Below, in pieces: positions 3,279-37,150 of a stretch of DNA of 64,000 bases. A program made the position numbers and the translations under genes. A model generated the notes under the pieces. That model ran no database searches. It had not been told where the DNA came from and worked only from the letters and a program-made list of their open reading frames with translations. How positions within the stretch are numbered: the first letter of the stretch is position 1; each line of letters starts with the position of its first letter. Origin of the DNA: an uncultured Clostridia bacterium (GTDB taxonomy: Bacteria > Acidobacteriota > Blastocatellia > UBA7656); the NCBI GenBank assembly GCA_964468725.1, contig CAYXVU010000003.1:3681-67680 (forward strand), in the 5' to 3' direction.

Positions 3279-3329
3279 TTTTACGCTCCTTTGCGATTTG
3301 GGTTACTGAACAGACCGTAGTTGGGGCAA

Positions 3330-3737: not shown

Positions 3738-3747
3738 AACATTCTCC

Positions 3748-7567: not shown

Positions 7568-8047
7568 ATGATGATTTTTTCAAAGACCACAGCTTACGGA
7601 GTTCGCGCCATGGCCTACCTCGCCATGCATCCTGCGCTGTGTGGTCTGAAAGAGATTGCTGAGAACGAAAAGATTCCCCCGGTCTACTTGCGAAAAGTGT
7701 TGGGCGAGTTGCGCAGGCATCGCCTCTTGCGCTCCGTTAGAGGATTGCATGGAGGCTATGAATTGGCTCGCGCGCCCGAAGCGATCACCTTGCTCGATGT
7801 TTTTCAGGTGTTGGAACCCGATCCTTATCTGGATGCCTGCATTTTGGGGCATGAGGTGTGTAAGGCCGAAACTGCCTGCGCGTTGCACGCGGAATGGCAA
7901 GGCGTGCGCGAAGAGATTGTCCGGTTATTGCAGAGTAAAACGATCTCTGATTTGGCACAGGCCACAGCGATAGACCGACCGGTTTCTATTACAGAGAGCG
8001 ACTCTCGTTGGGAAGCGCAGGAAAATTCGGATGAGTGGGAGCGATGA
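7568..8047 (+). CDS. Rrf2-family transcriptional regulator (NsrR/IscR-like, with a Cys-x-x-Cys-x5-Cys cluster-binding region)
   Basis: N-terminal winged-helix KTTAYGVRAMAYLA plus the C-terminal cysteine triad CILGHEVCKAETAC. Its stop overlaps the next start (ATGA at 8044-8047). Confidence 0.8.
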   Translation: MMIFSKTTAYGVRAMAYLAMHPALCGLKEIAENEKIPPVYLRKVLGELRRHRLLRSVRGLHGGYELARAPEAITLLDVFQVLEPDPYLDACILGHEVCKAETACALHAEWQGVREEIVRLLQSKTISDLAQATAIDRPVSITESDSRWEAQENSDEWER

Positions 8048-9960
8048 TGGCGGCACTGAAGACAGATGTTCCAGGCAGCACCTATCATCAAGACTTGATC
8101 GCTTGTCAGGTCGCTTGTCCTGTGCATACCGATGCCCGCGGTTATGTGCGCGCCATTGCCGAAGGGCGGTTTGAAGAAGCCTATCTCATCGCGCGTGGCC
8201 CGAATCCCTTTGCTTCGATCTGCGGACGCATCTGCGGCGCACCCTGCGAAGCGGCCTGCCGTCGCGGCAAAGTGCCGCGCGTTGATGATGATGGCAATTT
8301 TGTTGCGCAGGATCGCCCCATTGCCATTCGAGCGCTCAAGCGGTTCGCCTGCGAGCAAGCTGGCCCCGAAGCCCGACCCGCAGATGCCATTTTGCGTGCC
8401 GTACAATCCTTCACCCCGCCGATAGCAGCTTATCCTGAAGAGATGGCAGCGTTGTTGCGCGCCGCCATCGAAGGGAGATTGATTCCAGCCGCAGGCGAAC
8501 GCGTCGCTATCATTGGCGCAGGTCCGGCGGGGCTTTCCGCGGCGCACGATTTAGCCCTGTTAGGCTGCAAACCAGTAGTGTTTGAAAGCGAGCCGGTGGC
8601 CGCAGGTATGCTGGCTGTCGGGGTTCCTGCCTATCGCCTGCCGCGCGAATTGATTGCCCAAGAGATTGCTGTGATCGAAGCCCTCGGCGTCGAGATTCGC
8701 TGTGGGGTAACGATTGGCAAAGAGATTTCATTTGCCGATTTGCGCAGAGATTTCGCTGCCGTGCTGATTGCTGTGGGAGCGAAAGCTTCACGGAGTTTGG
8801 GGCTCGAAGGCGAACATGGGCCGCGCGTTTATGGCGGCGTTGATTTGCTGCGCGCTGTGGCGCTCGGCGAAGCCCTCGACATCGGCCAAGATGTAGTTGT
8901 CATCGGTGGCGGCAACGTTGCCTACGACGTTGCTCGCACCATTGTTCGCCAGATCGCCTATGATGCAGCGCGCACGGCGGCGCGCTTGCCTGCAACCGCC
9001 CGCGTGCGATTGATCTCATTGGAAAGCCTCGAAGAGATGCCCGCCGACACTTTGGAAATCCTGGAAGGCGATGAAGAGGGAATCGAACGCCACAACGGTT
9101 GGGGGCCGGTGCGGATTCAACGCGATGCACAGGGTAACGTGACCGGCGTCATCTTTCGCCAATGCGTTCGCGTTTACGATGAAGCGAGACGCTTCGCGCC
9201 GGTCTTCGATGATCGGGTCACGCAGAACTTGCCTTGTGACACTGTGCTGCTTTCGGTCGGTCAAGCGCCCGCCCTCTCCTTTCTCGAAGAGGGTGGCAGC
9301 GACCTTGAGATGATGCGTCCCGGGTGGCCGAAGGTTGATCCGACAACTTTGGCCACGACGGCAGAGGGGGTGTTTGTCGCGGGCGATTTGGCGCACGGGA
9401 CGCGATTGCTGATTGATGCCGTCGCTTCCGGCAAAGCGGCGGCGCGCTCGATCTATCAATTCCTTACAGGTCGCACGCTGCATGCAGAAGCCGTGACCGC
9501 GCATGCGGTTTTGCCCCACTACAGACGCGAGCGCGGCTACGAGGCGATTCGCCGCGTCGCCGTTCCAGTTATCTCGCCGGAATCACGCCTCGAACATCCT
9601 GATTTGGTGGTCGAACGAGGATACAGCCGCGAGGAAGCGCAACGCGAAGCCTCGCGTTGTCTCGATTGCGGCGTCACGCCGGTCTTCGATGGCAGCCGTT
9701 GTGTGTTGTGCGGCGGGTGCGCGGATGTTTGCCCGACCGAATGTTTGAAACTGGTTGCCCTCAGCGATCTGGATTTGACCGGAGAGTTGACCGCTGCGGT
9801 TGAAAACACGTTCGGCGCGGAGGTGGATCTATCAGAGCATTCGGCCATTCTCAAAGATGAAGATCGTTGCATTCGTTGCGCCTTGTGTGTGCAACGCTGC
9901 CCGGTTGAAGCCATCGCGATGGAGAGGGTGACATTCACCAGTGTTTGGAGGTCGCAATGA
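8044..9960 (+). CDS. GltD-like (glutamate synthase small-subunit family) FAD/NAD(P)H oxidoreductase fused to a C-terminal 2x[4Fe-4S] ferredoxin domain
   Basis: GltD-type N-terminal Fe-S region (CQVACPVHTD...CGRICGAPCEAAC). Rossmann motif VAIIGAGPAGLSAA. Two CxxCxxCxxxCP motifs at the C-terminus. There is an alternative GTG start at 8035. Confidence 0.75.
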   Translation: MMAALKTDVPGSTYHQDLIACQVACPVHTDARGYVRAIAEGRFEEAYLIARGPNPFASICGRICGAPCEAACRRGKVPRVDDDGNFVAQDRPIAIRALKRFACEQAGPEARPADAILRAVQSFTPPIAAYPEEMAALLRAAIEGRLIPAAGERVAIIGAGPAGLSAAHDLALLGCKPVVFESEPVAAGMLAVGVPAYRLPRELIAQEIAVIEALGVEIRCGVTIGKEISFADLRRDFAAVLIAVGAKASRSLGLEGEHGPRVYGGVDLLRAVALGEALDIGQDVVVIGGGNVAYDVARTIVRQIAYDAARTAARLPATARVRLISLESLEEMPADTLEILEGDEEGIERHNGWGPVRIQRDAQGNVTGVIFRQCVRVYDEARRFAPVFDDRVTQNLPCDTVLLSVGQAPALSFLEEGGSDLEMMRPGWPKVDPTTLATTAEGVFVAGDLAHGTRLLIDAVASGKAAARSIYQFLTGRTLHAEAVTAHAVLPHYRRERGYEAIRRVAVPVISPESRLEHPDLVVERGYSREEAQREASRCLDCGVTPVFDGSRCVLCGGCADVCPTECLKLVALSDLDLTGELTAAVENTFGAEVDLSEHSAILKDEDRCIRCALCVQRCPVEAIAMERVTFTSVWRSQ

Positions 9961-10442
9961 CAACCAAAGCCAGTCCCGAACAATCACGACTCGACCCGGA
10001 GCCGATGCCGCGCAGAGATTTCCTCGGACTCTCGGCACTACTGGCGGCGGCTTCGTCCATGCTGTTTGCCGTCTTTGGCATGTTGCGATTGCCGAAGGCG
10101 GCAGTCCTGGCATCGCCTTCGAAAAAGTTCAGCGTGACGCTGCCCGATGCGCTCGCGCCGAACGAGCCATTCGTTCCGGCTGGCCGCGCCGTCGCGCTGT
10201 TCAAAGATGATGAAGGCGTCTATGCCCTCTCGACCATCTGCACCCATCTCGGATGCGTCGTGAAACCATCGCCGGAAGGATTCGAATGCCCATGTCATGG
10301 CTCAGGCTTTGCTCTAAACGGAGCCGTGACAAAAGGGCCAGCGCCGCGCGCTCTGCCTTGGCTGAAGGTCAGCAACTCAGGCAACGGCTGGGTGGTGGAT
10401 GAAGGCACGACCGTGCCTGCTGGTTCAAAGGTGAAAGCATGA
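9957..10442 (+). CDS. Rieske [2Fe-2S] protein with twin-arginine signal (RRDFLG)
   Basis: Rieske boxes CTHLGC and CPCHGS. Tat motif at the N-terminus. ATGA overlap with the upstream gene; a TTG start at 9945 is also possible. Confidence 0.85.
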   Translation: MTTKASPEQSRLDPEPMPRRDFLGLSALLAAASSMLFAVFGMLRLPKAAVLASPSKKFSVTLPDALAPNEPFVPAGRAVALFKDDEGVYALSTICTHLGCVVKPSPEGFECPCHGSGFALNGAVTKGPAPRALPWLKVSNSGNGWVVDEGTTVPAGSKVKA

Positions 10443-11996: not shown

Positions 11997-13652
11997 ATGA
12001 ACAAGAGCAAACATTTACTCTTATGGTCGAGCATTGGCGTGCTGACGCTGCTTATCGTTGCCGCTGTGGATGAGAACTATTGGAAAGAGTGGCGGCGCAT
12101 TCAAAAAGCGACGCGTTCGGCAGAAGGCGCGATTGATGTGCGCTTGCGGCAAGTCATCAATCCCGGACTCGCAATCTCTGACCGCTGCGTTTCGTGTCAC
12201 GTTGGGATGTCGCCGGGAGAGCAAGATATATTCGGCGCCTCAGTCGTTGCGCCGCACAAACCCGTCGTGCATCAACCAACCGAGATGGGTTGCACCATCT
12301 GTCATGGCGGGCAGGGACGCGCGACGGACAAAGCCGATGCGCACGGCGCTGTGCGATTTTGGCCGCAGCCGATGTTGCCGACAAAATACAGCTATGCGGG
12401 ATGTGGAACCTGCCACACCCCTCTACATATCCCCAGTCGGGTGGCGCTTGAGAAAGGGCGCAGCGCATTCGAGCGATTGGATTGTTACGCCTGCCATCGG
12501 TTGGACGGACGCGGCGGCACGCTGCGCCCTGGCGGCGGCGGGATGGAAGGCCCGGATTTATCGCATGTCGGACTGAAAGGCTTTGATGCGGGCTGGTATG
12601 ACAAACACCTGAAGAGTTACGAAGGCGCAACCGCCGGAACCTGGCGCGATGCGTTCGGGCCGATTGATGAAAGCGAGCGTCAAGCGCTGAGTCTTTTTCT
12701 CTCTTCGCGCATCGGCGCGCCGCGACTGATCGAAGCCAAGGCGCTGTTCAACTCGGTCGGCTGTTTGGGCTGTCATAAAGTGGGTGGTACGGGTGGCGAT
12801 GCCGGACCCGATCTGTCGCGCAGCGGCGAACGCGACCCCGGCCAACTCAATTTCACGTCGGTCAAAGGCGAACATACGTTATCGAATTGGTTGGCGGAAC
12901 ACTTTCGCTCGCCGGTCGCCACCGTACAAGGGTCGCAAATGCCGATGCTCGGGTTGACGGAATCCGAGATTGACTTGTTGACCCTGTACACGTTGTCGCT
13001 GCGGCGCAGAGAGCTGCCGAGCGTCTATCTGCCAAAAGATCGCGTGCAGGCGATGCGGTTTGGCGAGCGCGAATTTGCTACTGATGGGGCGACCGTCTTC
13101 AGCGCCATCTGCGCGGGCTGTCACGGTCGCGATGGCAAAGGCATACGCTACCCCGGCGTGCCACCCTTTCCTTCGATCATCAATCCCGATTTTTTAGAGC
13201 TTGCTTCCGATGAATTTATCGTGCAGACGATTACCAAAGGTCGCTCCGGTCGCAAGATGTTAGCGTGGGGCGAAAAAGAGGGTGGCCTGCGCCCCGACGA
13301 GATCAGAGCCGTTGTCGGGTATTTGCGACAAGCCGCAGGCAACATCGCAGCCAAACCGGAGACCGAGCCGCCGCGTTGGGTCAGAGGGGATGTGAAGTTG
13401 GGCAGCCGCCTGTTTACCGCCAACTGTGCGGGGTGTCACGGACAGAGAGGTGAAGGCGGCGAAGGCCCTGCGCTCAATAACAAAACCCTGCTCGGTTTTG
13501 CCACAGATCGCTTCTTGGTTGACACCATCAGTCGCGGGCGCAGAGGAACAGCGATGCAGAGTTTTCTCACTCCTTCGCCGGTTCGCGCTGCGCTCACGCC
13601 ATCGGAGATCGAAACCATCGTCGCGTTCATCCGCACTTGGGAGGGTAAGTAG
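11997..13652 (+). CDS. Membrane-anchored heptaheme cytochrome c (N-terminal tetrahaem module plus three class-I monohaem domains)
   Basis: Seven CxxCH motifs (CVSCH, CTICH, CGTCH, CYACH, CLGCH, CAGCH, CAGCH). N-terminal TM helix. It starts 5 nt after the cytochrome b stop. Confidence 0.8.
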
Positions 13653-13656: not shown

Positions 13657-16600
13657 ATGAAAAGAGAGATGTCACGGCGCGAATTTTTTGAACGAGTTTC
13701 AGCGGCAGGATTTGGCGCGCTCCTCGCTTCTTCGAGCCAAGCGTGGGCGCTGGAGGCCATCAGCAACCCGCTGGCGGTCTATCCGGATCGCGGTTGGGAG
13801 CGCGTCTACCGCGACCTGTGGAAATACGATTCGAAGTTCACCTTTACCTGCGCTCCCAACGATACGCACAACTGCTTGCTCAATGCCTATGTGCGTTCCG
13901 GTGTGGTAACGCGCATTGGCCCGACGATGCGCTACGGCGAAGCGACAGACCTCAACGGCAATGGCGCGACGCATCGTTGGGACCCGCGCATCTGTCAAAA
14001 AGGGCTGGCATTGACGCGACGGTTTTACGGAGATCGGCGCGTCAACGGCTGCATGGTGCGCGCCGGATTCAAACGTTGGTACGAAGAGAAGTTTCCGCGC
14101 GGCAACGATGGCCGCCCGCCGAGCGAATACTTTCAACGCGCCCGCGATGAATGGGTGCGAGTGTCGCACGACGAAGCCGCCACTATCGTTGCCGCCGCCT
14201 TGAAAAACATTGCCGAAACCTACAGCGGCGAAGAGGGCAAAAAACGGCTCAAAGCGCAGCATTACGATGAAGCGACCATCGAAGCGACGCAGGGGGCAGG
14301 CACTCAGGTCTTGAAGTTTCGCGGCGGCATGCCCCTGCTCGGCATTACACGGGTCTTCGGTATGTATCGCTTTGCCAATTCGATGGCGTTATTGGATTCG
14401 GCGATTCGCGGCGTCGAACCGGATAAAGCCATCGGCGGCAAAGGCTTCGACAATTATTCGTGGCACACAGACCTGCCGCCCGGCCATCCGATGGTGACCG
14501 GACAACAGACGGTTGAGTTCGATCTCTCTGCTGTCGAGCATGCCAAAACGGTCGTTGTCTGGGGCATGAATTGGATTACCACCAAGATGCCCGATTCGCA
14601 TTGGCTCACCGAAGCGCGGCTCAAAGGCACGCGGGTCATCGTCATCGCCTGCGAATACTCGGCGACGGCCAGCAAAGGCGATGATGTTTTAGTCGTCAGA
14701 CCCGGCACGACGCCCGCGCTCGCGCTCGGCTTTGCTAACGTAATTCTGCGAGAGAATCTCTATAACAAGGACTATGTGCGCCAGTGGACGGACTTGCCGA
14801 TTCTGGTTCGCACCGACACCTTGAAGTACCTGCGCGCCGAAGAAGTCTTCGGGCAGCGACCCGGTGCGTTGCAAGCGACTCGCGTCCTCAAAGAGGGCGA
14901 GAGGGAGCCGCCCGCCGCGCAACAAAAAGAGAGCATCATCACCGAAAAGCTGCGCTTGGAGTGGGGCGATTTTCTCTGGTGGGATCGCGCCAGCAACACG
15001 CCGAAGCTATTGACTCGCGATGAAGTTGGGAAGAATTCAAAAATCGGTGATGCCCTGTTGGAAGGCGCGGTTGAGGTGACGCTGGCAAACGGCGAGAAGG
15101 TTCGCTGTCGTCCGGTCTTCGATTTGGTGAAAGAGTATGCGGCGCATTTCGACCCGCAAACGGTCGAAGAGATTACCTGGGCACCGGCTGCCGCAGTCGA
15201 AGCTCTGGCGCGCGACTTTGCTAAAGAGCCGGGAACGACGCTTTTTGCCGTCGGCATGGGGCCGAATCAATTCTTTAACAACGACAACAAAGACCGCGAT
15301 ATTTTCCTGCTCGCGGCCTTGACCGGCAACGTCGGAAAGATCGGCGGCAACGTCGGGTCGTTTGCGGGGAATTATCGCGTTGCTCTCTTCAACGGCTCGC
15401 CTCAGTACATCAACGAAAACCCGTTCGACATTGAACTCGATCCGGCCAAACCCGCCCGCCCGCGTCAGTATTGGCGCGCGGAGTCGGCGCACTATTACAA
15501 CCACGAAGATCATCCGCTCCGCGTCGGCAACAAACTCTTAACCGGCGCGACCCACATTCCTGCGCCGACCAAGTCTTTGTGGTTTGCCAACGCCAATTCG
15601 ATACTCGGCAATGTTAAGTGGCACTACAACTCGGTGGTCAATGTGCTGCCGCGCTTCGAGATGATCGCCGTTCAAGAGTGGTGGTGGTCTACATCGTGCG
15701 AGTGGGCTGATGTCGTCTTCGGGGTGGATACGTGGGCGGAGTTGAAACACCCGGATATGACCGCATCGGTGACCAATCCGTTTTTGATTCTCTTCCCGCG
15801 CACTCCGCTGGCGCGCATCTTCAACACGATTGGCGACATAGAAGTGCTGGCGTTGGTCTCCGCGAAGATGGCCGAATTGACCGGCGACAATCGCTTTAAT
15901 GATTACTGGAAATTTGTGCGCGAGAATCGCACGGATGTCTATTTGCAACGGGTGCTCGATGCTTCGACCAACACGAAGGGGTACAAGTTTCACGAACTCG
16001 AAGCGAAAGCTCTCGAAGGCATTCCGGCGCTGATGAATTCGCGCACCACGCCGAAGGCCGTCGGCTACGATCAAGTCACCGATTCGACGCCTTGGTACAC
16101 CAAAAGCGGCAGGTTGGAGTTTTACCGCGAAGAGAACGAGTTCATCGAAGCGGGCGAAAATCTGCCGGTGCATCGAGAGCCGGTGGATTCGACTTTCTAT
16201 GAGCCAAACGTGATTATCGCGCCGCCTCACGAAGCGATTCGTCCGGCGGGGCCGGAAAGCTACGGTGTGAAACGCGACGATCTATCGTGCGAAACACGTT
16301 GCGGGCGCAATGTTGTGCTGACCTGGGAAGAGACGAAAAAGTCGGCGCACCCGCTCATCAAACAAGGCTACAAGTTTATCTTTCACACGCCGAAGTACCG
16401 GCACGGTTCGCACACGACGCCGATTGATACCGATATGGTTGCAGTGTTGTTTGGGCCTTTTGGCGACATCTATCGTCACGACAAGCGCAGCCCCTTTGTC
16501 ACCGAAGGCTATGTGGACATCAATCCCGCCGATGCGCGCGAATTGGGAGTGCACGATGGCGATTACGTTTGGGTTGACCCTGACCCGGAGGATCGCCCAT

Positions 16601-17100
16601 TTCGCGGTTGGCAAAATAACCAACGCGATTACGAATTCGCCCGCTTATTGTGTCGGGCGCGCTATTACCCCGGCACGCCGCGCGGCGTGACGCGCATGTG
16701 GTTCAACATGTACGGGGCAACGCCGGGGTCGCAACAGGGGCAACGCGAGCGCAAAGATGGACTCGCTAAAAACCCGCGCACGAACTATCAAGCGATGTTT
16801 CGTTCGGGTTCGCATCAATCGGCGACGCGCGGCTGGCTGAAGCCGACCTGGATGACCGATTCGCTGGTCAGAAAAGGACTCTTCGGGCAGGGGATTGGCA
16901 AAGGCTTTTTGCCCGATGTGCATTGCCCGACCGGCGCGCCGCGCGAAGCGATTGTCAAGATCAGCCGCGCCGAGCCGGGCGGCATTGAGGGCAAAGGGTT
17001 GTGGCGTCCCGCAGAACTTGGCATCCGACCCAATTACGAATCGCAAGAGATGCAGAGATACCTCGCCGGTCAATTCATCAGTGACGGAAAGGAGAAATAG
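13657..17100 (+). CDS. Tat-exported molybdopterin oxidoreductase catalytic (alpha) subunit, type II DMSO reductase family (periplasmic NarG/NxrA-like)
   Basis: 1147 aa, counted from the [11 protein letters not shown] start; this is the correct reading frame of the longer ORF listed in the track. It has an SRREFF twin-arginine signal, an N-terminal C-X3-D-X3-C-X39-C cluster motif, and a Nar/Nxr-like length. It is followed directly by its beta subunit. Confidence 0.8.
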
Positions 17101-17102: not shown

Positions 17103-18254
17103 ATGGCTCGCGTTTACAACTGGCAACTCGGAAGGCAGATGTCCTACTGGTATCCTGAAAGTCGCCCGCAAAAACAGTTCGCGGCGGTCTTTGACATCAA
17201 TAAATGCATCGCGTGTCAAACCTGCACTTTGGCCTGCAAGACGACGTGGACATCAGGGCAAGGGCAAGAGTACATGCTTTGGAACAACGTCGAGACCAAA
17301 CCTTATGGCTTCTATCCGTTGGCCTGGGATTTGAAACTTCTCGAAAAACTTGAAGGGCAGAATTGGGCGACCGGCGAATACGAAGGACGCCCGACTCACA
17401 CCTACGAAGGGCGCACCATCTTTGAAGCCGCCCCGCCCGGCGAGCGCGTTTTAGGATGGAGGCCGGAAGATCAAGACTACGCCTATCCCAACGTCGGCGA
17501 AGACGATTGCGCGGGGCAGATCGAACATGGCGCGAGTTTGCAAGTGCCGCATATGAACTGGTTTTTCTATCTGGCGCGCATTTGCAATCACTGCACCTAT
17601 CCTGCCTGTCTATCATCCTGTCCACGCGGGTCAATCTATAAACGACCGGAAGATGGCATTGTATTGCTCGATCAAGGCCGCTGTCGCGGCTATCAGGAAT
17701 GCGTCAAAGCCTGCCCGTACAAGAAGGTCTTCTTCAATGCGCTGACCGGCACATCGGAAAAATGCATCGCCTGTTTTCCGAAGATTGAACAGGGGTTGCA
17801 ACCGCAATGCTTCGTCAACTGCATCGGCAAGATTCGCTTGGCAGGTTGGATTTCGCCTCCCGATAAAGCCAAAGCCGATAACCCGATAGACTATCTTGTA
17901 CACATTCGCAAAATCGCATTGCCGCTCTTTCCGCAATTCGGCTTGGAACCGAACGTCTATTACATCCCGCCGATTCACGCGCCCGCATCGTTTCTGCGGC
18001 AGATGTTCGGGCCGGGCGCAGAAGAGGCTGTGAAGACTTACCGACAAGCCGCACAAGACCCGGAACTCTCCGGCCTGCTCGGACTCTTTGGCTCGACGGA
18101 GATGGTGATACCCAAATGGCGGCGGCAAGGTGATCGAGTGATTGGCATAACCGAATCGGGCGCGGAGGCCGTGCGAGTGCCGCTGCGGGAGCCGATTCAG
18201 ATTCGCCCGGCCTACGATCAGTTGTACCAGATTTCGCGGGTGAATTGCCCGTGA
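17103..18254 (+). CDS. Iron-sulfur beta subunit (NarH/NxrB-like, four Fe-S cluster motifs) of the type II DMSOR enzyme
   Basis: [38 protein letters not shown] and [11 protein letters not shown]...C. Good RBS. It starts 3 nt after the alpha subunit stop. Confidence 0.8.
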
Positions 18255-18351
18255 GGGCATGAAAGCTGAGATAGGAGAATCGGCGCAAAGGTTCAACCAG
18301 ATTTGCGGACGGTTCACAGAGTCGCATCCGCGAAGCGAAGAAGGAGGCTGT

Positions 18352-19206
18352 ATGCGGACACCACTTCGATATATTGCAGGGGTGATGATCTTCAGTTTGG
18401 TGATGAGTTGGGGGTGTCGTCGGGCGACGGTTTTGACTCCCGAAGTCGTTGCGGTTACGGCCAAGCAACTACCAACCGACCCCGGCGACCCGGCGTGGGA
18501 TAAGGTCTCTGAGCATGTGGCCAAGTTGGTGCTGCAAGATTTGGTCGAGCCGCGCTTGATGGAGGCTTCGACGCCGGAAGTTCACGTCCGCGCCATAACC
18601 GACGGCACGGAGGTTGCCTTTCGATTGCAGTGGGCAGACCCGACGATCAATGATGCGCCCGGCCCAATGCATTTTCTCGATGCCTGCGCGGTTCAGGTGC
18701 CTTCGAAGGTCGAAGCGAATGTACCCGCGCCGCAGATGGGCGAAGCGGGCAAGCCCGTCGAAATCGCCTTTTGGCGTGCCGATTGGCAAGCTTCGGTTGA
18801 CGGGCGCGAAGACTCGATCAACGCCTTGCACCCCAATGCTTCGGTGGATCATTACCCTTACAACGCACAGTCATTAGAGAAAGGTTCGGAAGCGCAGCAA
18901 GAGATGGCGAAACGGTACGCTCCGGCCAGCGCGGTTGGCAATCGCCGCGTCGGCCCGCGCAACACGCCGGTTGAAGACTTAATTGCCGAAGGGCCGGGCA
19001 CGCTCTCCCCCGCGCCGCAATCGCTGTCAAAAGGGCGCGGCGCGCATGGGCAGGATGGTTGGTCGGTCGTCATTATTCGTCATTTGCCCAATGATTGGAC
19101 GCCGCAGACGCGCTCGCAGATTGCGTTTGCCGTGTGGGAAGGAAATCATCAAGAGGCTGGCGCACGCAAGATGCGAACGGGATGGATTCCGTTGTTGATG
19201 AGGTGA
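18352..19206 (+). CDS. Putative gamma subunit (ethylbenzene-dehydrogenase-gamma / NxrC-like haem b domain) with signal peptide or lipobox
   Basis: Strong RBS AAGGAGG before the ATG at 18352. Signal peptide with ...LVMSWGC. Its size and position match EB_dh-type gamma subunits. No CxxCH is present, which is consistent with haem b. Family assignment is by architecture only. Confidence 0.5.
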   Translation: MRTPLRYIAGVMIFSLVMSWGCRRATVLTPEVVAVTAKQLPTDPGDPAWDKVSEHVAKLVLQDLVEPRLMEASTPEVHVRAITDGTEVAFRLQWADPTINDAPGPMHFLDACAVQVPSKVEANVPAPQMGEAGKPVEIAFWRADWQASVDGREDSINALHPNASVDHYPYNAQSLEKGSEAQQEMAKRYAPASAVGNRRVGPRNTPVEDLIAEGPGTLSPAPQSLSKGRGAHGQDGWSVVIIRHLPNDWTPQTRSQIAFAVWEGNHQEAGARKMRTGWIPLLMR

Positions 19207-19211
19207 GCAAG

Positions 19212-19862
19212 ATGAACGCGCAGGTGTTACAAGAACTACAGACGCGCAGGCTGTTGCGGGAAGCGACCGAGTGGCGGTTGCTGAGTTTGCTATTTGAATG
19301 TCCGACCGGAGGCTGGCGCGACAAGATCAGGGGGCTGGCCGCAGAGGTAACGGATGAAGATTTGAAGGCCGCAGTCGTAGCCGCTACAGTAGAAGCGAGC
19401 GAGGGGCTTTATCATTCGCTCTTTGGCCCCGGCGGCCCGGCTCCGGCGCGCGAAATCAGCCATCGGGCTTTGATTCAACCAGGCTATCTGATGGCTGAAT
19501 TGAGGAGTTACTACGACGCTTTCTCTTATCATGCCAATGCGGCGGAGGCGGTCGATCATGTGGCGGTAGAAGCCGGATTCCTCGCTTATCTGCGGTTGAA
19601 GGAAGCTTACGCAGCGGATTGTGGCGATGCCGAGAAGGCCGAATTGACGGCGGCGGCAGCACAGAGCTTTATGCGAGAGCACTTGGCTTTCGTTGCCGAA
19701 CCGCTCGCTGCTGCGCTTCAGCATTCTGGGGTGGGTTATCTGGCATTGGCCGGGCAGGCTTTGCTGCATCGCGCCGGTTCTGCCAAGCGCACAGCGCAAG
19801 GGCAACCGCTGCCCATCTTGTCTGAAGATGATGATTGTATGTTCGCCTGCGGAGAGTCGTAA
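19212..19862 (+). CDS. TorD/NarJ-family redox-enzyme maturation chaperone
   Basis: ~216 aa. The conserved TorD-like stretch EAVDHVAVEAGFLAYL resembles E-P-D-H-x-x-x-E-L-x-F. It occupies the last position of the operon, as chaperones do in nar/ddh/ser clusters. Confidence 0.6.
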   Translation: MNAQVLQELQTRRLLREATEWRLLSLLFECPTGGWRDKIRGLAAEVTDEDLKAAVVAATVEASEGLYHSLFGPGGPAPAREISHRALIQPGYLMAELRSYYDAFSYHANAAEAVDHVAVEAGFLAYLRLKEAYAADCGDAEKAELTAAAAQSFMREHLAFVAEPLAAALQHSGVGYLALAGQALLHRAGSAKRTAQGQPLPILSEDDDCMFACGES

Positions 19863-20101: not shown

Positions 20102-21655
20102 GTGATGAAGAACAACGCAACTGCGCGAATGAGGCTGAAAAAGTATTTCGTATGGGTTGCTCTGATCGCTCTGACGCTAACGGGTTGGGTGAATCGGGTG
20201 ATGGCGCAGCAGCCTGCAACCGCGAGCAGCACAGCAAAACCGGCGACGCAATCGCCCGCGCCCATCAAGATCGGCGATCTAACCTTTTCCGGCAGCCTGC
20301 GCCTGCGCGCCGAGAATTGGAATTGGTTTGAAACCGCTGCCGCCGATCACGATTACACCTTCGGAGCCGCCGTGTTGCGGTTGAGCCTCGCTCAACAAAC
20401 CGAGCGGCTCGATTGGCAAGTCGAAGGCATGTTTCCGGCGCTTATCAATCTGCCGGAGAAGGCCATTGCCCCCGCGCCGCAAGGGCAACTGGGACTCGGA
20501 GCCAGCTACTTTGCTGCCAACGGACAGCAGGATGCGAGCGCTATATTGAGACAGGCCTTCGTGCGCTTCAAAGGGCTGGGCGGCGATCAAGCGAGCAGTC
20601 TGCGAATCGGGCGATTCGAATTTGTCGAAGGCGCAGAGACTACACCTGCCGACGCAACGCTGGCAACCCTCAAACGCGATCATCTGGCGCATCGTCTGAT
20701 CGGCACTTTTGGCTTTTCGCATGTCGGGCGCAGTTTTGACGGCGTGCAGTATGCGCGGAATACCAAGACCTCCAATGTAACGGTAGTCGCGGCGCGACCA
20801 ACCGAAGGGGTCTTTCAATTGCGCAGCCTCTACGAACTGGATGTGGACTTCTATTACGGAGCCTATACCCGACCCTTTGCGACGAAGAATACGAAGAGCG
20901 ACGTGCGCGCTTTCGCCTTGCACTATCATGATGGCCGTCCGGCGCTGAAGACCGACAATCGCCCTTTGTTGGCGCGCCAAGCCGATGGCGAGAACCTGCG
21001 ATTGACCACCATCGGCGGACATTCGATTACGGCCATGAAAGCAGGAAGCGGAACCGCCGATCTGCTAGTTTGGGGAGTCGGACAATTCGGCAGTTGGGGC
21101 AGGCTCGATCATCGCGCCGGAGCCATCGCTGTAGAGGCAGGTTATCAACCGGGCGGCGCGCTTGCCGCCAAACTCAAACCCTGGATACGGGGCGGCTACT
21201 TCCGCAGCACCGGAGACGGCAATCCCGGCGATGATGCGCACACCACCTTTTTTCAAGTGCTGCCAACGCCGCGCATCTACGCGCGCTTTCCCTTTTACAA
21301 CCTCATGAATAATGAAGATGTGTTCGCGCAACTGCGGCTGAAACCGCATGCGCGGTTGGCGCTGCGCGGTGACGTTCGTCATCTGCGCTTGAGCAATGAA
21401 AATGATCTTTGGTATGTGGGCGGCGGCGCGTTTCAGAAAAATTCCTTCGGATACATTGGGCGACCGAGCGGCGGGAAAAAGAGTATGGGGACGCTCTTTG
21501 ATGTGAGCCTGGATTACACGGTGGCGTCACGCACGGCGTTGACCTTTTATGTGGGAGGAGTGCGCGGCGGCGGCGTGCCTGCCGCCATTTATCCGCAAGG
21601 CGGGAATAATCCGGCAGCCCATTTTCTCTACTTCGAATTCACCCAGCGATTTTAG
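20102..21655 (+). CDS. Outer-membrane beta-barrel protein (putative porin) with signal peptide
   Basis: N-terminal signal (ALIALTLTGWVNRVMAQQ). Alternating amphipathic beta strands. C-terminal aromatic-terminal motif ...YFEFTQRF. Confidence 0.5.
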   Translation: MMKNNATARMRLKKYFVWVALIALTLTGWVNRVMAQQPATASSTAKPATQSPAPIKIGDLTFSGSLRLRAENWNWFETAAADHDYTFGAAVLRLSLAQQTERLDWQVEGMFPALINLPEKAIAPAPQGQLGLGASYFAANGQQDASAILRQAFVRFKGLGGDQASSLRIGRFEFVEGAETTPADATLATLKRDHLAHRLIGTFGFSHVGRSFDGVQYARNTKTSNVTVVAARPTEGVFQLRSLYELDVDFYYGAYTRPFATKNTKSDVRAFALHYHDGRPALKTDNRPLLARQADGENLRLTTIGGHSITAMKAGSGTADLLVWGVGQFGSWGRLDHRAGAIAVEAGYQPGGALAAKLKPWIRGGYFRSTGDGNPGDDAHTTFFQVLPTPRIYARFPFYNLMNNEDVFAQLRLKPHARLALRGDVRHLRLSNENDLWYVGGGAFQKNSFGYIGRPSGGKKSMGTLFDVSLDYTVASRTALTFYVGGVRGGGVPAAIYPQGGNNPAAHFLYFEFTQRF

Positions 21656-21722: not shown

Positions 21723-22475
21723 GTGGTTATGATGATTGATAGCGCAGAGACCGTCGGCCAATTGGCGGTTATGATTCCCGGGGCGACGCAAATTTTCGAA
21801 CAACTACAGATTGACTATTGCTGTAAGGGGAATCAGACGCTATTGGAAGCTTGCACGACGGCAAACATTCCGATTGCGTTGGTGATCGTCTCTCTGCAAC
21901 AGGCAGAGGCTGCGGGACAAGCTGCCGAAGCCGCGCCGCAAAGCTGGCAGCACGCTACCCTTACCGAGTTGATCGCTCATATTCTGGAGACCCATCACGT
22001 CTACACGCGCGCGGAGTTGGAGCGACTGGAATCTTTGCTTGCCAAAGTCGTTTCCGTGCATGAAAAGAATCACCCCGAGTTGGCGGCGTTGCAGAAGAGC
22101 TTCTTTGTCTTAAAGCAAGACTTGCTGCCGCATATGTATAAAGAAGAGCAAGTGTTGTTTCCGTACCTGATGGAGATGGAAGCCTTGATCGCCCGACAAC
22201 AGAGCGTGCCGCGTCCGTTCTTCGGCTCGGCGCAGAATCCCATTCGGATGATGATGCTGGAGCACGATGCGGCGGGCGAGGCGCTGCGCGAGATGCGCGC
22301 CTTGACGCAGGATTACCGACTGCCTGCGGATGCCTGTCCGAGCTATCACAATCTCTACAGCGGTCTGGCGGCATTCGAAGCCGACTTGCACCGGCACATT
22401 CACTTGGAGAACAACCTGCTCTTTCCTCGCGCTTTGGCGATAGAGAGCCGAGCCGCGAGCGCGACCGTCGCTTGA
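21723..22475 (+). CDS. ytfE: Iron-sulfur cluster repair di-iron protein (YtfE/ScdA/RIC family)
   Basis: ScdA N-terminal motif QIDYCCKG. The C-terminal region has the His/Glu-rich hemerythrin-like di-iron domain (HHVYTRAELE...; HIHLENN). Confidence 0.75.
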   Translation: MVMMIDSAETVGQLAVMIPGATQIFEQLQIDYCCKGNQTLLEACTTANIPIALVIVSLQQAEAAGQAAEAAPQSWQHATLTELIAHILETHHVYTRAELERLESLLAKVVSVHEKNHPELAALQKSFFVLKQDLLPHMYKEEQVLFPYLMEMEALIARQQSVPRPFFGSAQNPIRMMMLEHDAAGEALREMRALTQDYRLPADACPSYHNLYSGLAAFEADLHRHIHLENNLLFPRALAIESRAASATVA

Positions 22476-22476: not shown

Positions 22477-23295
22477 ATGAAGAGCAAACCGCCCATTCCA
22501 AAAGAACACGGCGCGTGGGCGATGCTCTACGCGCCGCTGGTCATGGCAGCATTGTCATTCGGCAGGTTCGACCTGCGCGGTATCCTCTTCTTCGTCGCCG
22601 TGACCGGCGTCTTTTTGGCGCACGAACCGTTTGCCGCTCTAGCCAGACTCCGACCTTCGCAACCGAACGGCCTGCAACGCCGAAGTCAGGCGCGCGTGTG
22701 GTTAGCGATTTACGCCCTCATTGCCGTTGCCGCAACGCTGCCGTTGTTGTTGACGTATGATCGCTGGTTGTTGCTGCCTTTCGGGGCTGTCTTGCTGGTG
22801 TTGCTGCTCTTACATATTTGGATGGCGGCCAAACGCGCCGAACGCAAAGTGGTAGGGGAACTGCTCGGCGTCATCAGCCTGACGATGACCGCGCCCGGAG
22901 CCTACTATGTCATCGCCGGACGATTTGACGAGATGAGTTTATTGATTTGGGTTTTGAACCTGCTCTATTTCGCAAGCGCCGTCTTTTACGTAAAGATGAG
23001 AGTCAGCCGTTATGCACAAAAGCCGGATGCCGGGTTGCGCACGTGGCAATGTGTGATCTATCACCTCGGCTTAGGCGCGCTCGTCTTTTTGGCTCTTCGA
23101 TGGGAGTTAGTTTCGAGCCTTCTGCTGTTGGCCTACTTTCCCATCATGATTCGCGCCTTTGCAGGGCTGCGCCCGCAGGGGCAACGATTGAACCTCAAAC
23201 GCATCGGCGTTGCCGAACTCGGTTACACGGTCGTCTTCATCATCTTCGCTGTTTGGGGTATCTACCTCCACTCTCCGCTGCCATCTCCATCTTGA
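22477..23295 (+). CDS. Polytopic membrane protein of unknown function (possibly YwiC-like)
   Basis: 272 aa with ~7 predicted TM helices and a conserved-looking N-terminus EHGAWAMLYAPL. It starts 2 nt after ytfE. The family assignment is uncertain. Confidence 0.4.
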   Translation: MKSKPPIPKEHGAWAMLYAPLVMAALSFGRFDLRGILFFVAVTGVFLAHEPFAALARLRPSQPNGLQRRSQARVWLAIYALIAVAATLPLLLTYDRWLLLPFGAVLLVLLLLHIWMAAKRAERKVVGELLGVISLTMTAPGAYYVIAGRFDEMSLLIWVLNLLYFASAVFYVKMRVSRYAQKPDAGLRTWQCVIYHLGLGALVFLALRWELVSSLLLLAYFPIMIRAFAGLRPQGQRLNLKRIGVAELGYTVVFIIFAVWGIYLHSPLPSPS

Positions 23296-29497: not shown

Positions 29498-29782
29498 ATG
29501 GCCAAAACGCAATCTGACGACGCCCGTCGAAACGGGTCACTGGTCACCAAACGATTGTCAGAATAACCCTTCGCGGTGTGAACTTCCGCACCCGATTGCG
29601 CGCTTTCACGCAATTTCACCCTACTCTCTTCCTGAACTTGTTGCTCTGATAGGGAATCATCACCGTTATGGGCGGCATAGTGATTGCAACCTTTACATCG
29701 TTCGGCATAGTAAGGATGAGGGTTGAGTTTCGCACGCCGGTATGTGCTTAGCAGGCAGGAAGCGGAAGGGAGGGACAGGGCG

Positions 29783-30505
29783 ATGAAATCATCTTTCGGA
29801 TTGTGCATGATCGAGAATTGTTTGGACTGTGAGCAGCGCACACACTATCTATTTTGCAATCTTTCTCCTGATTCGTTACAGGCGCTTGAAGAGATCAAAT
29901 ACACAACGCTCTATTCGAAGGGAACGGTTCTCTTTGTCGAAGGTCAGTCGGCGCGCGGCATCTTTATCCTCTGTCAGGGGCGCGTGAAGTTATCGACTAC
30001 GTCGAGTGATGGCAAGACCTTGATAACAGAGATTGCCGAAGGCGGGGAAGTGTTGGGGCTGAGCGCGACGGTTTCTGGCACAACCTACGAAGTGACCGCC
30101 GAAGCATTGGAATCTTGTCAGGTGAATTTCATTCGCCAAAGCGACTTTCGAACCTTTCTATCGGCGCATAACGACGCCGCCTTACGAGTTGGTGAACATC
30201 TCAGCCGCAACTATCAAACCGCGCACGAGCAGCGTCGAACCATTGGGCTGGCGCGCACCTCGCTGCAAAAGTTTGCCAACTTCCTGCTCGAATGGAGCGC
30301 GCAGCAGGGCAAGCCGACCGAACAAGGCGTGCGCTTGAAGATTACCTTGACGCACGAAGCCATCGCGCAAATGATCGGGGCATCGCGCGAGACTGTGACG
30401 CGACTCTTCGGCGATTTGAAGAGTCGCGGAGTGATTCACGTCAAAGGCTCAACCTTGCTGATTTGTGATCCCGACGTCCTCCAAGAATTAGCTCACCCCG
30501 GATAG
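29783..30505 (+). CDS. Crp/Fnr-family transcriptional regulator with an N-terminal four-Cys cluster (FNR-type Fe-S sensor candidate)
   Basis: cNMP-binding-like beta-roll plus C-terminal HTH (ETVTRLFGDLKSRGVIHVKGS). N-terminal C8/C13/C16/C25 (CMIENCLDCEQ...C). RBS GGGAGGG. Confidence 0.8.
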   Translation: MKSSFGLCMIENCLDCEQRTHYLFCNLSPDSLQALEEIKYTTLYSKGTVLFVEGQSARGIFILCQGRVKLSTTSSDGKTLITEIAEGGEVLGLSATVSGTTYEVTAEALESCQVNFIRQSDFRTFLSAHNDAALRVGEHLSRNYQTAHEQRRTIGLARTSLQKFANFLLEWSAQQGKPTEQGVRLKITLTHEAIAQMIGASRETVTRLFGDLKSRGVIHVKGSTLLICDPDVLQELAHPG

Positions 30506-35184: not shown

Positions 35185-35637
35185 ATGAGAGCACGCACAC
35201 TACAAAGCATCATTCTGGGCATCGGGCTAGGGGTGATTGTCGGCATCGGCGGTTATACCTTCATCTATGCGAAGGGCTATTCCTATCTCACCAACGATCC
35301 GGCTTCGTGTGCGAACTGTCACGTCATGCAAGATCACTACGATGGTTGGATCAAATCGAGCCATCGGTCGGTGGCGACTTGCAATGATTGCCACACGCCG
35401 CCGGGTGCCATAGCCAAGTATGCAACGAAAGCCTCAAACGGCTTTTGGCACTCGTTCGCTTTTACGACCGGACGATTCCCCGAACCGCTGCGCATCAAAA
35501 CCCATAACCGCGAGGTCACCGAACAAGCCTGCCGGAAATGTCATCAAGAGATTGTTGATGCCATCGAAGGGCAGCACGCAGGCGCACAGGAGTTGTCCTG
35601 TCTGCGTTGTCACGGTTCGGTTGGCCATCTGAGATAG
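35185..35637 (+). CDS. nrfH: NrfH, membrane-anchored tetrahaem cytochrome c (NapC/NirT family) quinol dehydrogenase
   Basis: N-terminal TM helix plus four CxxCH motifs (CANCH, CNDCH, CRKCH, CLRCH) in ~150 aa. Confidence 0.85.
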   Translation: MRARTLQSIILGIGLGVIVGIGGYTFIYAKGYSYLTNDPASCANCHVMQDHYDGWIKSSHRSVATCNDCHTPPGAIAKYATKASNGFWHSFAFTTGRFPEPLRIKTHNREVTEQACRKCHQEIVDAIEGQHAGAQELSCLRCHGSVGHLR

Positions 35638-35752
35638 TCGGTGATTGTCCTTTGCGCTTTGCCGATCACCGGCAATTGACCAGCGGTTCGGAGAGTAAAT
35701 TGTCGGGCGCTGCTTGTACCCGACGACGAAATTCAAATAGGAGAGACAAGGT

Positions 35753-37150
35753 ATGGATGAAGCAGAAACGCCAGGCGCGCCTGCCCGCGCGCCGCAACAA
35801 CGTACCCTAAAGATCATCGTCATTACCGCTTTTATTTCGTTGCTCGTTGCCATTGGCGGCACAGCGTTGTTGGTCAATATCCTCGAACGCAAACAGGAAG
35901 GCCGCAATCCTTTCTATCGCGTCGTCGAATTGACCGATGAGGTGGATGATGCAGAGGTGTGGGGGAAAAATTTCCCGCTGCAATATGACGCTTACCGCCG
36001 CACCGTAGATCAAATTCGCACGCGCTTTGGCGGCAGCGAAGCCATACCACGCACGCCGACGGCAGCCGACCCACGCTCGATTGTCTCGCAATCGCGCCTC
36101 GAAGAAGACCCGCGATTGAAGATGATGTGGGCCGGGTATGCATTCGCAAAGGATTTCCGCGAAGAGCGCGGCCACGCTTTCATGCTTGACGATCAAACCT
36201 TCACCGAACGTCAGGTCGTCGTCAAACAACCAGGCACCTGCATGCATTGTCACGCATCGGTCTATGTGCCCTACAAACGGCTCGGCGACGGCGATTTGAT
36301 GAAGGGATTCGAGAAGATGAATCAGATGCCCTATAGCGAGGCGCGTCAGTTGGTCAGCCATCCGGTTACGTGTATTGACTGCCATGACCCCACCACCATG
36401 CAACTGCGTGTGACCCGCCCAGGTTTTATCGAAGGCATCGCGGCTCTGAAAGCCGGTCAAGGCATCGCCAACTATGATGTCAATCGGCAGGCGACGCGCC
36501 AAGAGATGCGCAGTTACGTCTGTGGGCAGTGCCACGTCGAATACTATTTCAAAGGGCCGGAGAAGCGTCTCGTCTATCCCTGGTCGAAGGGGTTGAAAGT
36601 GGATGAGATCATGGCCTATTACGAAGAGACGAAGCATAAAGATTGGACGCATGCCGAAAGCGGCGCTGAAGTGTTGAAAGCGCAACATCCGGAATTTGAA
36701 TTATGGAATCAGGGCATTCACGCGCGTTCCGGTGTGGCTTGCGCCGATTGCCACATGCCCTACAAGCGTGAAGGGGCACTCAAGATCAGCGATCATCACG
36801 TTCGCAGCCCGCTGCTCAACATCAGCTTTGCCTGTCAAACCTGTCACAAATGGCCGGAAGAAGAGTTGCGCGCTCGCGTCGAAACAATTCAGGAGCGTAC
36901 CTTCCGACTGCGCAACTTGGCGATGGACGCGCTGATCGAACTCATCAATGAGATCAAAGCCGCGCGCGCGGCGGGGAAGACCGACGATCAGCTTGCCGAA
37001 GCGCGGAGCTATCAGCGCAAGGCGCAGTTCTATCTGGATTTTGTGGAGGCGGAAAACTCAACCGGCTTTCATGCCCCGCAGGAAGCGGCGCGCATTCTCG
37101 GCGAGTCCATTGACTTTTCGCGGCGCGGACAGACAGCGTTGCGAAAATAG
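35753..37150 (+). CDS. nrfA: NrfA, pentahaem cytochrome c nitrite reductase (ammonia-forming); all five haems are CxxCH
   Basis: CMHCH, CIDCH, CGQCH, CADCH, CQTCH. Its size and position after nrfH fit. Strong RBS. Confidence 0.85.
   Translation: MDEAETPGAPARAPQQRTLKIIVITAFISLLVAIGGTALLVNILERKQEGRNPFYRVVELTDEVDDAEVWGKNFPLQYDAYRRTVDQIRTRFGGSEAIPRTPTAADPRSIVSQSRLEEDPRLKMMWAGYAFAKDFREERGHAFMLDDQTFTERQVVVKQPGTCMHCHASVYVPYKRLGDGDLMKGFEKMNQMPYSEARQLVSHPVTCIDCHDPTTMQLRVTRPGFIEGIAALKAGQGIANYDVNRQATRQEMRSYVCGQCHVEYYFKGPEKRLVYPWSKGLKVDEIMAYYEETKHKDWTHAESGAEVLKAQHPEFELWNQGIHARSGVACADCHMPYKREGALKISDHHVRSPLLNISFACQTCHKWPEEELRARVETIQERTFRLRNLAMDALIELINEIKAARAAGKTDDQLAEARSYQRKAQFYLDFVEAENSTGFHAPQEAARILGESIDFSRRGQTALRK

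Follow-up and report, generated by a model that had tools for sequence, protein, structure and literature searches.

A 64,000-nucleotide stretch of contig CAYXVU010000003.1 (assembly GCA_964468725.1), referred to here as the window, contains an open reading frame (ORF) at 8044..9960 (+) for a 638-residue Fe-S flavoprotein, which is very probably the NAD(H)-linked subunit of a Kuenenia-type Rieske/cytochrome b (Rieske/cyt b) complex. The complex is a non-canonical one, of the 'APWY' or subfamily-G type, the same kind as Kustd1480-85 and Kuste4569-74 of the anammox bacterium Kuenenia stuttgartiensis. A partnership of this flavoprotein with the Rieske/cyt b complex had been put forward in an earlier reading of the DNA sequence (the original prediction), and conserved gene order supports it strongly. 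Next in the operon, and absent from that prediction, are genes for a molybdoenzyme of the nitrite oxidoreductase (NXR) type.

The ORF is not a chance one, since its homologues number in the thousands (16,785 relatives in an exhaustive search of representatives) and the AlphaFold2 model of its product reaches a pLDDT of 91.6, with a pTM of 0.91. Many of the relatives are proteins of ~600 residues with the same Cys pattern and 39-58 % identity. Translation begins at one of two ATG codons, 8044 or 8047, since the NCBI entry 100 % identical to the product has 637 residues and begins at the second, and a Shine-Dalgarno-like GGGAG at 8036-8040 is spaced slightly better for 8047. With the first codon the gene overlaps that of an Rrf2-family regulator by 4 nt (ATG at 8044, Rrf2 stop TGA at 8045-8047), and with the second by 1 nt (TGATG). 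The ATG of the Rieske gene (9957) overlaps the flavoprotein TGA (9958-9960) in the same 4-nt manner, so that both ATGA junctions of the original prediction, 8044-8047 and 9957-9960, can be read in the sequence. A third joins the Rieske and cyt b genes (cyt b ATG 10439, Rieske TGA 10440-10442). A consensus scan for internal promoters and terminators that would split the flavoprotein gene from its neighbours gave the level of shuffled sequence (promoters 6 versus 5.9, terminators 18 versus 21), such a scan being uninformative for Acidobacteriota.

Genome contigs were scanned for close relatives, and 80 loci were obtained with flavoprotein identities of 70-81 %. Most are labelled Acidobacteriota (Blastocatellia, Bryobacterales, Vicinamibacterales, Thermoanaerobaculia) and some Planctomycetota. 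The order flavoprotein-Rieske-cyt b-multihaem cytochrome c was found in all 78 loci having enough downstream sequence, and the same loci continue into NxrA-NxrB-NxrC-chaperone wherever the contig reaches that far, with NxrA identities typically of 77-88 % (lower in the frameshifted locus L037). The 4-nt overlap of the flavoprotein and Rieske genes is kept in 66 of the 78, and that of the Rieske and cyt b genes in 45 loci. Eleven distant representatives were also examined, ten of them informative, the contig of P0141 being too short to judge. Eight of the ten, with 42-58 % identity, have Rieske genes adjoining the flavoprotein: a Rieske gene behind it in P0132 and P0138 (both 48 %), Rieske/cyt b in P0145 (42 %) and in P0128 (49 %, from a metagenome-assembled genome, MAG, of Nitrospirota), Rieske/cyt b with a multihaem cytochrome c in P0143 (49 %) and P0152 (46 %), Rieske/cyt b and then a shorter type II molybdoenzyme in P0121 (58 %), and two tandem modules behind a cupredoxin gene in P0125 (46 %). 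The original prediction was to fall if homologues were never syntenic with Rieske/cyt b genes elsewhere, and the opposite was found in both the close and the distant sets.

What is conserved is thus the four-gene module, with NXR as one among several periplasmic partners. P0121 (locus L085, 571-11332) is the closest non-NXR relative and has the same cassette layout with a molybdopterin alpha subunit of only 947 residues; its molybdoenzyme possibly acts on a different substrate of the type II DMSO-reductase family. The locus of P0125 (L083, 4241-15284) has two complete flavoprotein-Rieske-cyt b-multihaem c modules in tandem, a cupredoxin gene before them and no molybdoenzyme, which suggests that the module may have other high-potential partners.

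Flavoprotein relatives occur also in MAGs labelled Nitrospirota and Nitrospinota. Several labels among the 80 close loci (L001-L080) are implausible for a cassette so close to those of Acidobacteriota, namely 'Heliomicrobium', 'Bordetella', 'Clostridia', 'Brocadiaceae', 'Methylomirabilis' and 'Acidimicrobiia', and were not used as evidence of distribution. They reflect either unreliable automated taxonomy or horizontal transfer of the cassette; identities of 70-88 % across phylum labels fit both.

Anatomy of the flavoprotein

By sequence and fold the protein is a member of the GltD/NfnB/DPD-type Fe-S flavoprotein superfamily. The three parts named in the original prediction, a GltD-type Fe-S N-terminus, an FAD/NAD(P) module and a ferredoxin tail, were recovered with Pfam as Fer4_20, Pyr_redox_2 and two Fer4 domains, the central module having the glycine loops GAGPAG and GGGNVAYD. 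The predicted cytoplasmic location agrees with the absence of a transmembrane segment or signal peptide from the protein, hydropathy (Kyte-Doolittle, 19-residue) reaching a maximum of 1.32 at the Rossmann glycine loop. Foldseek matched the model, in this order, to NfnABC (9bov_A), StnC (8oh5_C), NfnABC (9n5u_A), NfnB (5jca_L/4ylf_B), and DPD and GltD, with E-values from 2e-43 to 2e-26 and a TM-score of ~0.8 to NfnB (normalised to target length).

Conservation was assessed in an alignment of 64 family members, 37-81 % identical to the window protein. It has 16 conserved Cys in four groups, enough for four Fe-S sites. In the N-terminal region C21, C25, C64, C68, C72 and K99 are invariant, and C60 and E69 nearly so. 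The canonical first motif of GltD and DPD is C-x2-C-x4-C-x3-CP; in this family its 'RC-x2-C' half appears to have been relocated behind the flavoprotein module, and it is to the displaced site that the NfnABC and StnC subunits of known structure align. The displaced motif would complete a second cluster of the N-terminal type. Two such clusters, one built of three Cys and the conserved Lys, and two ferredoxin clusters would make four in total. All eight Cys of the ferredoxin domain (C553/556/559/563 and C609/612/615/619) are invariant; the domain has a ~45-residue insert, and its sequence matches in the PDB are FwdF (5t5i, chain 5t5i_F) and NuoI. Kuste4570 and Kustd1483 are likewise described as having FAD and four Fe-S sites, the FAD-adjacent one without a fourth Cys and with a buried Lys (PMC12954380).

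The 'LYRR' of 9bov_A, which holds the 2'-phosphate-binding 'YRR' of NfnABC, aligns to 'ISLE' of the window flavoprotein, so that the basic NADPH-site motif of the NfnB type is absent and 'SLE' replaces it. The equivalent site reads CLE[ST] in most Rieske-linked relatives and YRR in P0125. A preference for NADH rather than NADPH is predicted because 'SLE' stands where NfnABC has YRR.

Several identities were considered and rejected. GltD proper scored 155.7 against a cut-off of 447.7 (TIGR01317), 163.8 against 483 (TIGR01318) and 216.9 against 471.8 (TIGR01316), and no GltB-like gene is found in the window. Formate dehydrogenase beta and YgfK/AegA were rejected on NCBIfam scores far below the cut-offs and on the absence of the partner genes. 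All NCBIfam equivalog and subfamily models in fact score the protein below cut-off; the source annotations of its homologues read 'glutamate synthase beta-like' or 'formate dehydrogenase beta'. NfnB-like flavin-based bifurcation by the flavoprotein itself, which would need a second acceptor branch, was set aside because there is no NfnA-like [2Fe-2S]/FAD partner. The window protein resembles NfnB, NfnABC, StnC, GltD and DPD (4ylf, 5jca, 9bov, 8oh5, 9n5u, 6s6s, 1h7w) in its fold, in the sites for FAD and NAD(P)H and in the Fer4_20 motif, and NfnABC and StnC likewise have a displaced RCxxC and ferredoxin-like clusters behind the flavoprotein module. Unlike all of these, it lacks a partner domain resembling NfnA, GltB or formate dehydrogenase and shows no sign of flavin bifurcation, and its putative partner is a membrane cytochrome.

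An independent soluble enzyme, merely co-transcribed with the Rieske genes, was also considered: an NAD(P)H:ferredoxin-type or NfnB/SudA-like oxidoreductase, or else an enzyme of redox balance or of Fe-S/NO stress. The missing membrane segment, the soluble bifurcating enzymes that are its nearest solved relatives, two paralogues outside Rieske contexts and the names given to the homologues all point that way. This explanation is nevertheless highly improbable, given the near-universal adjacency to Rieske/cyt b, the 4-nt overlaps kept over wide divergence, the invariance of an N-terminal His in the partner cyt b, the absence of an NfnA-like or GltB-like partner gene, and the co-migration of the Kuenenia subunits. 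The NAD(P)H:ferredoxin activity proposed in the original prediction is probably not indicated; most likely the role of the ferredoxin tail is to conduct electrons internally, as a wire to the membrane.

The probable Rieske/cyt b partner

The best PDB matches of the Rieske protein are 9rk4 (Kuste4569, E 4e-15) and 9rk3 (Kustd1480, E 4.6e-15), the best b6f Rieske protein following at 2.2e-11. It has the Ser/Phe (S-F) pair, as in Kustd1480, whose measured midpoint potential is +335 mV; that of the other Kuenenia Rieske protein is +303 mV (PMC12954380). The window cyt b has its APWY Qo motif at residues 355-358 and keeps the four haem His; at the CxGG position it reads AGLG and has no haem cN cysteine, WCMGG being kept only in the Nitrospirota relative (L081/L082). 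His52, in an N-terminal segment to which canonical b6 and bc1 sequences fail to align, is invariant in 85 of 85 flavoprotein-associated cyt b and precedes the CxGG position by 17-18 residues. Around it, in residues 40-66 (10439-10640), the motif R-x-R-x3-VF-x-N-x-F-x-H-x-H-x-V-R is kept in all flavoprotein-linked cyt b. In Kuenenia, AlphaFold3 predicts an extra inter-monomer haem b with an N-terminal His of cyt b as ligand (PMC12954380), and His52 may be the ligand of such a haem. The same motif is covered by the NCBIfam model of Geobacter ExtP, the cyt b of a selenite/tellurite-reduction operon, so that a related cyt b may also be in use in the Ext cluster of Geobacter.

Both Kuenenia complexes have a 'putative NAD(P) oxidoreductase' subunit (PMC12954380). 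For Kuenenia Rieske/cyt b operons such subunits have been described (Kartal 2011/2013, de Almeida 2016, PMC12954380), and Dibrova et al. (PMC5600118) noted them 'in many other cases'. The original prediction, which called the placement of the flavoprotein in a membrane respiratory operon atypical, thus put it too strongly. The Kuenenia subunits co-migrate in complexome profiling (de Almeida 2016, cited by PMC12954380), and the window flavoprotein would likewise form a physical complex with Rieske/cyt b. NfnABC (9bp5) and FwdF (5t5i) have been reported as structural homologues of Kuste4570 (PMC12954380); 9bov_A, identical in sequence to 9bp5, is the top match of the window flavoprotein by both sequence and fold, and 5t5i_F matches its C-terminal domain by sequence. 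No anammox-labelled protein was recovered among the 50 % cluster representatives, in cluster look-ups of 30 proteins, or by an 'RCxxC' at position 511 or 550, so the link to Kuenenia draws on the sequences of the Rieske crystal structures, the common structural homologues and the published descriptions.

The likeness to Kuenenia comprises a cytoplasmic flavoprotein of the FAD/NAD(P) type, with four predicted Fe-S sites, encoded beside Rieske/cyt b and a multihaem cytochrome c, and an FAD-adjacent cluster predicted to have three Cys and a conserved Lys. The gene order (flavoprotein, then Rieske, then cyt b) is different in the window, and the cytochrome c is heptahaem, unlike the hexa- or octahaem proteins of Kuenenia; an HAO-like subunit is absent. 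The operon also runs straight into NxrABC, the nucleotide site predicts NADH, and the host is of Acidobacteriota (Blastocatellia-like), with no anammoxosome. Three points weigh against the assignment itself. The window cyt b is long and fused and has AGLG, whereas Kuenenia has a split b6 and subunit IV with CxGG and the haem cN cysteine. The correspondence of His52 to the published His43/62, and of Arg538 to Arg511/550, is only a guess. Finally, two of the ten informative distant relatives, P0131 (47 %) and P0160 (39 %), do not adjoin Rieske genes.

Kao & Hunte 2014 describe an uncharacterised APWY clade whose Rieske partners have mid+ to high predicted potentials, and the APWY Qo motif and the S-F Rieske protein (CPCHGSGF) of the window agree with it. 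Dibrova et al. (2013, 2017) place the long cyt b genes of clade G' 'in large conserved operons ... of an unknown function'; the window cyt b may belong to that clade. The mixed taxonomic distribution is a further likeness to subfamily G and the APWY clade, and suggests horizontal transfer. In the text read from these papers, no partner enzyme or function is assigned to G or APWY cyt b.

The NXR-type enzyme and the direction of electron flow

The catalytic subunit matches NxrA of Kuenenia (7b04_B) over its full length with an E-value of 1.4e-246, followed by PcrA (9e-43) and NarG (5e-37). Identity to 7b04_B is 41 % over the first 393 aligned residues, and the CxPNDTHxC motif is kept. Full-length NxrA homology, export by the twin-arginine translocation (TAT) route, and NxrB, NxrC and chaperone genes place the enzyme with the periplasmic NXR of the Nitrospira/anammox type. 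Full-length homologues of NxrA, NxrB and NxrC, the TAT signal, the FS0 motif and a TorD/NarJ-type chaperone are common to it and the periplasmic NXR of Nitrospira, Nitrospina and anammox bacteria (7b04). Unlike these, it shows only ~41 % identity over the residues stated, stands in a nitrate/nitrite-reduction context and is encoded in one operon with Rieske/cyt b. No description of an NXR-Rieske/cyt b-flavoprotein cassette in Acidobacteriota was found in the literature searched. The kind of subunit was known already; what was not found described is the fixed eight-gene cassette with a periplasmic NXR-type enzyme, widespread in Acidobacteriota and lying amid genes of NO/nitrite respiration.

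The gene context argues for nitrate reduction over nitrite oxidation. The window contains RIC, YwiC, Crp/Fnr and nrfHA genes, and in other loci the genes upstream of the cassette include RIC, qNor and Crp/Fnr. Among 71 related loci the upstream genes were Rrf2 in 35 (directly 5' of the flavoprotein), RIC in 14, YwiC in 8, and qNor and Crp/Fnr in 6 each. By the logic of the Q cycle, a reductase of NAD(P)+ on the N-side would be supplied with electrons only during the oxidation of quinol at Qo, and the Rieske branch would have to drain to a high-potential acceptor. The NXR-type enzyme is the only such acceptor encoded here, in agreement with nitrate reduction. Periplasmic nitrate enzymes that take their electrons from Rieske/cyt b have precedents in haloarchaea and Methanoperedens (PMC3509893, PMC4683180) and in Campylobacter. 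The haloarchaeal and Methanoperedens narGH-narBC clusters likewise encode a periplasm-facing nitrate enzyme of the type II DMSO-reductase family together with a quinol-fed Rieske/cyt b, but they are archaeal, have a catalytic subunit of the Nar and not the NXR lineage, and no NAD(P) flavoprotein is described in them.

A true nitrite oxidoreductase, with Rieske/cyt b and the flavoprotein serving reverse electron transport that runs from nitrite to NAD(P)+ in hosts that are unrecognised nitrite oxidisers, comes nearest to the wording of the original prediction. The full-length homology to Kuenenia NxrA and the flavoprotein relatives in MAGs labelled Nitrospirota and Nitrospinota speak for it, and periplasmic NXR-like genes in MAGs of non-nitrifiers have been suggested to mark possible nitrite oxidisers (bioRxiv 10.1101/2020.05.19.103440). 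Run backward, however, Rieske/cyt b would put electrons into quinol and not into the N-side branch, NAD(P)+ being reduced only in the quinol-oxidising mode, and nitrite (+420 mV) together with NAD(P)H reducing menaquinone would be unfavourable overall. The neighbouring NrfHA, RIC, qNor and Crp/Fnr are moreover typical of nitrate/nitrite reducers, and neither a terminal oxidase nor CO2-fixation genes were seen in the window. Nitrite oxidation is accordingly improbable. Of the 'reverse electron flow' in the original prediction, the part that stands is an uphill electron sent to NAD(P)+, as in the published quinol-bifurcation model; a direction starting from nitrite does not agree with the context.

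The best-supported mechanism, which we favour only tentatively, is nitrate-driven quinol bifurcation. Menaquinol would be oxidised at the Qo site and its two electrons split. The high-potential electron would pass through the Rieske protein and the cytochrome c to NxrC/B/A and reduce nitrate to nitrite; the low-potential one would go from the b haems through the Fe-S wire to FAD and reduce NAD(P)+, the four clusters of the flavoprotein forming the wire between the flavin and the N-side of cyt b. The nitrite could be handled by NrfHA, while the Rrf2 regulator and RIC would see to the sensing or repair of NO by-products. For anammox, quinol bifurcation to NAD(P)+ was proposed by Kartal et al. 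2013, as given in PMC12954380. With potentials of ~-70 mV for menaquinone and -320 mV for NAD(P)+ (PMC12954380) and of ~+420 mV for nitrate/nitrite (PMC6195509), the nitrate branch is ~490 mV downhill and the NAD(P)+ branch ~250 mV uphill.

Bifurcation and the direction of flow are inferred here, and several considerations weigh against them. The energy balance presupposes that Acidobacteriota use menaquinone. A heterotroph would have little obvious need for NAD(P)H from quinol, and since NXR-type enzymes are reversible the sequence does not fix the direction. No experiment on this flavoprotein or on any non-anammox homologue was found in the literature searched, and bifurcation in Kuenenia is itself a proposal backed only by the Rieske potentials and AlphaFold3 models (PMC12954380). 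The same hardware could also run with NAD(P)H as donor, which is the main rival. Electrons would then pass from FAD along the Fe-S wire and the b haems to menaquinone at the N-side Qi site, and the quinol would go on to Qo in a normal Q cycle, making the cassette a self-contained proton-motive NAD(P)H:nitrate oxidoreductase. Every step of this route is thermodynamically downhill, the hosts look heterotrophic in a context of nitrate/nitrite respiration, 'SLE' for 'YRR' suggests NADH, the catabolic carrier, and both haem pairs are kept in the long fused cyt b; the option is explicitly discussed in PMC12954380. It was judged unlikely there for Kuenenia because ~250 mV would be wasted in comparison with complex I. 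It also leaves unexplained the tight tie of the dehydrogenase module to the Rieske/Qo machine across phyla, and Rieske proteins of the S-F type imply, as do the +303/+335 mV found in an organism with menaquinone, a very low-potential bP haem, as NAD(P)+ reduction would need. On balance NAD(P)H as donor appears less likely than bifurcation, though it is a rival to be taken seriously.

An extension of the bifurcation model would make the cassette one supercomplex-like respiratory unit, in which nitrate reduction by the NXR-type enzyme drives quinol bifurcation in Rieske/cyt b and yields NAD(P)H at no cost in proton-motive force. The unit would be widespread among Acidobacteriota of soil and freshwater and would occur in some Planctomycetota-labelled MAGs. 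We regard this extension as possible, with more doubt than confidence. It bears on an open question of bioenergetics, namely whether bifurcation at the Qo site of Rieske/cyt b can deliver electrons to NAD(P)+ instead of recycling them to quinone, an idea that dates from 2013 and has so far been based on models and on a single slow-growing group, the anammox bacteria. Outside that group the same hardware is common, and one large lineage ties the complex to a defined high-potential enzyme, a nitrate/nitrite oxidoreductase of the NXR type, which offers a concrete and thermodynamically sensible reaction to assay. For Kustd1480-85 no high-potential partner has been proposed so far, according to PMC12954380 (2025); if nitrate-driven bifurcation in such a unit is true, the operon itself names the partner of such complexes and there are non-anammox hosts for testing the Kartal 2013 hypothesis. 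In that case nxrA/nxrB metagenomic reads assigned to Acidobacteriota or Planctomycetota would mark nitrate reducers, not nitrite oxidisers. NXR-like genes in MAGs of these two phyla should in any event not be taken as evidence of nitrite oxidation without their context. Should it do no more than supply nitrate respiration with NADH, the complex is a respiratory branch of an unusual but otherwise ordinary kind.

Other genes of the window

The coordinates of the flavoprotein domains, the operon and the neighbouring genes are collected in the table below.

Table. Features of the flavoprotein, its operon and the nitrate/nitrite-related genes of the window (AF2, AlphaFold2)
Feature	Position (strand)	Evidence or remarks
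Rrf2-family transcriptional regulator	7568..8047 (+)	Pfam Rrf2 122 bits
NAD(P)(H)-binding Fe-S flavoprotein with C-terminal 2x[4Fe-4S], putative cytoplasmic Rieske/cyt b subunit	8044..9960 (+)	Pfam, AF2, Foldseek
Fer4_20 (PF14691), aa 20-106	8101..8361 (+)	Pfam 65.9 bits, cut-off 25.8
N-terminal Fe-S motif C21-x3-C25-P ... C60-x3-C64-x3-C68-x3-C72 and invariant K99	within 8101..8361 (+)	
Pyr_redox_2 (PF07992), FAD and NAD(P)H module, aa 153-463	8500..9432 (+)	Pfam 81.4 bits, cut-off 26.1
Displaced R538-C539-x2-C542 motif	9655..9669 (+)	invariant in 64 family members; aligns with RCLECG of 9bov_A and 8oh5_C
2x[4Fe-4S] ferredoxin domain, aa 546-626	9679..9921 (+)	Pfam Fer4, Fer4_7, Fer4_10; CxxCxxCxxxCP twice
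Rieske [2Fe-2S] protein, twin-arginine motif RRDFL	9957..10442 (+)	CTHLGC...CPCHGSGF, 'S-F' type
Cytochrome b, long/fused, 517 aa	10439..11992 (+)	haem ligands H121, H135, H234, H249; Qo motif APWY
Heptahaem cytochrome c, membrane-anchored	11997..13652 (+)	7 CXXCH; N-terminal c3/c7-like part and three class-I domains
NxrA-like molybdopterin subunit, periplasmic	13657..17100 (+)	TAT signal SRREFF; PDB 7b04_B match
NxrB-like Fe-S subunit	17103..18254 (+)	Pfam Fer4_11; TIGR03478 270 bits, below cut-off
NxrC-like haem b subunit (EB_dh)	18259..19206 (+)	profile matches
NarJ/TorD-type chaperone for type II DMSO-reductase-family enzyme	19182..19862 (+)	Pfam Nitrate_red_del; TIGR03482
Outer-membrane porin-like protein (Alginate_exp family)	20102..21655 (+)	Pfam; no NCBIfam match
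RIC/YtfE di-iron Fe-S cluster repair protein	21723..22475 (+)	TIGR03652 241.5 bits, cut-off 204.7
YwiC-like membrane protein	22477..23295 (+)	Pfam
Crp/Fnr-family regulator	29723..30505 (+)	Pfam
nrfHA, ammonifying nitrite reductase	35185..37150 (+)	NrfH 35185-35637, NrfA 35753-37150; Pfam Cytochrom_C552 E 9e-137

The regulator upstream of the flavoprotein passes in NCBIfam at the superfamily level only, the NsrR, IscR and RirA models scoring below cut-off. It is probably an Fe-S sensor, as judged from its three Cys (C91, C98, C104). The NxrC-like gene probably starts at M32 (nt 18352), with a lipoprotein-type signal (…VMSWGC), the longer N-terminus given by the ORF finder then not being translated. 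The porin-like gene lies directly 3' of the chaperone gene and has partial matches at the ends of loci L018, L023, L030 and L039; its product may form a channel through which the anions nitrate or nitrite pass.

NrfH is a tetrahaem protein (4 CXXCH) with an N-terminal membrane anchor. NrfA is pentahaem and has 5 CXXCH and no CXXCK, and its active-site haem motif is therefore a CXXCH variant. The NXR-type genes are followed by nrfHA at a distance of 15 kb downstream, and so the organism is probably capable of reducing nitrate through nitrite to ammonium.

Within the island of nitrate/NO genes, a NosD-like beta-helix protein and then a dihaem cytochrome c of the SO2930 family (TIGR03806, 404 bits) are encoded at 23809-26147. 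Three consecutive ORFs of 487, 198 and 188 residues without a Pfam match occupy 30987-33646, between the Crp/Fnr gene and an ankyrin/hemerythrin pair. At 883-5106 (-), unrelated to the cassette, a 643-residue protein with a weak Pfam match to the Arf/small-GTPase family (29.9 bits) has as its neighbours a DUF4388 protein and two small ORFs that match nothing in Pfam.

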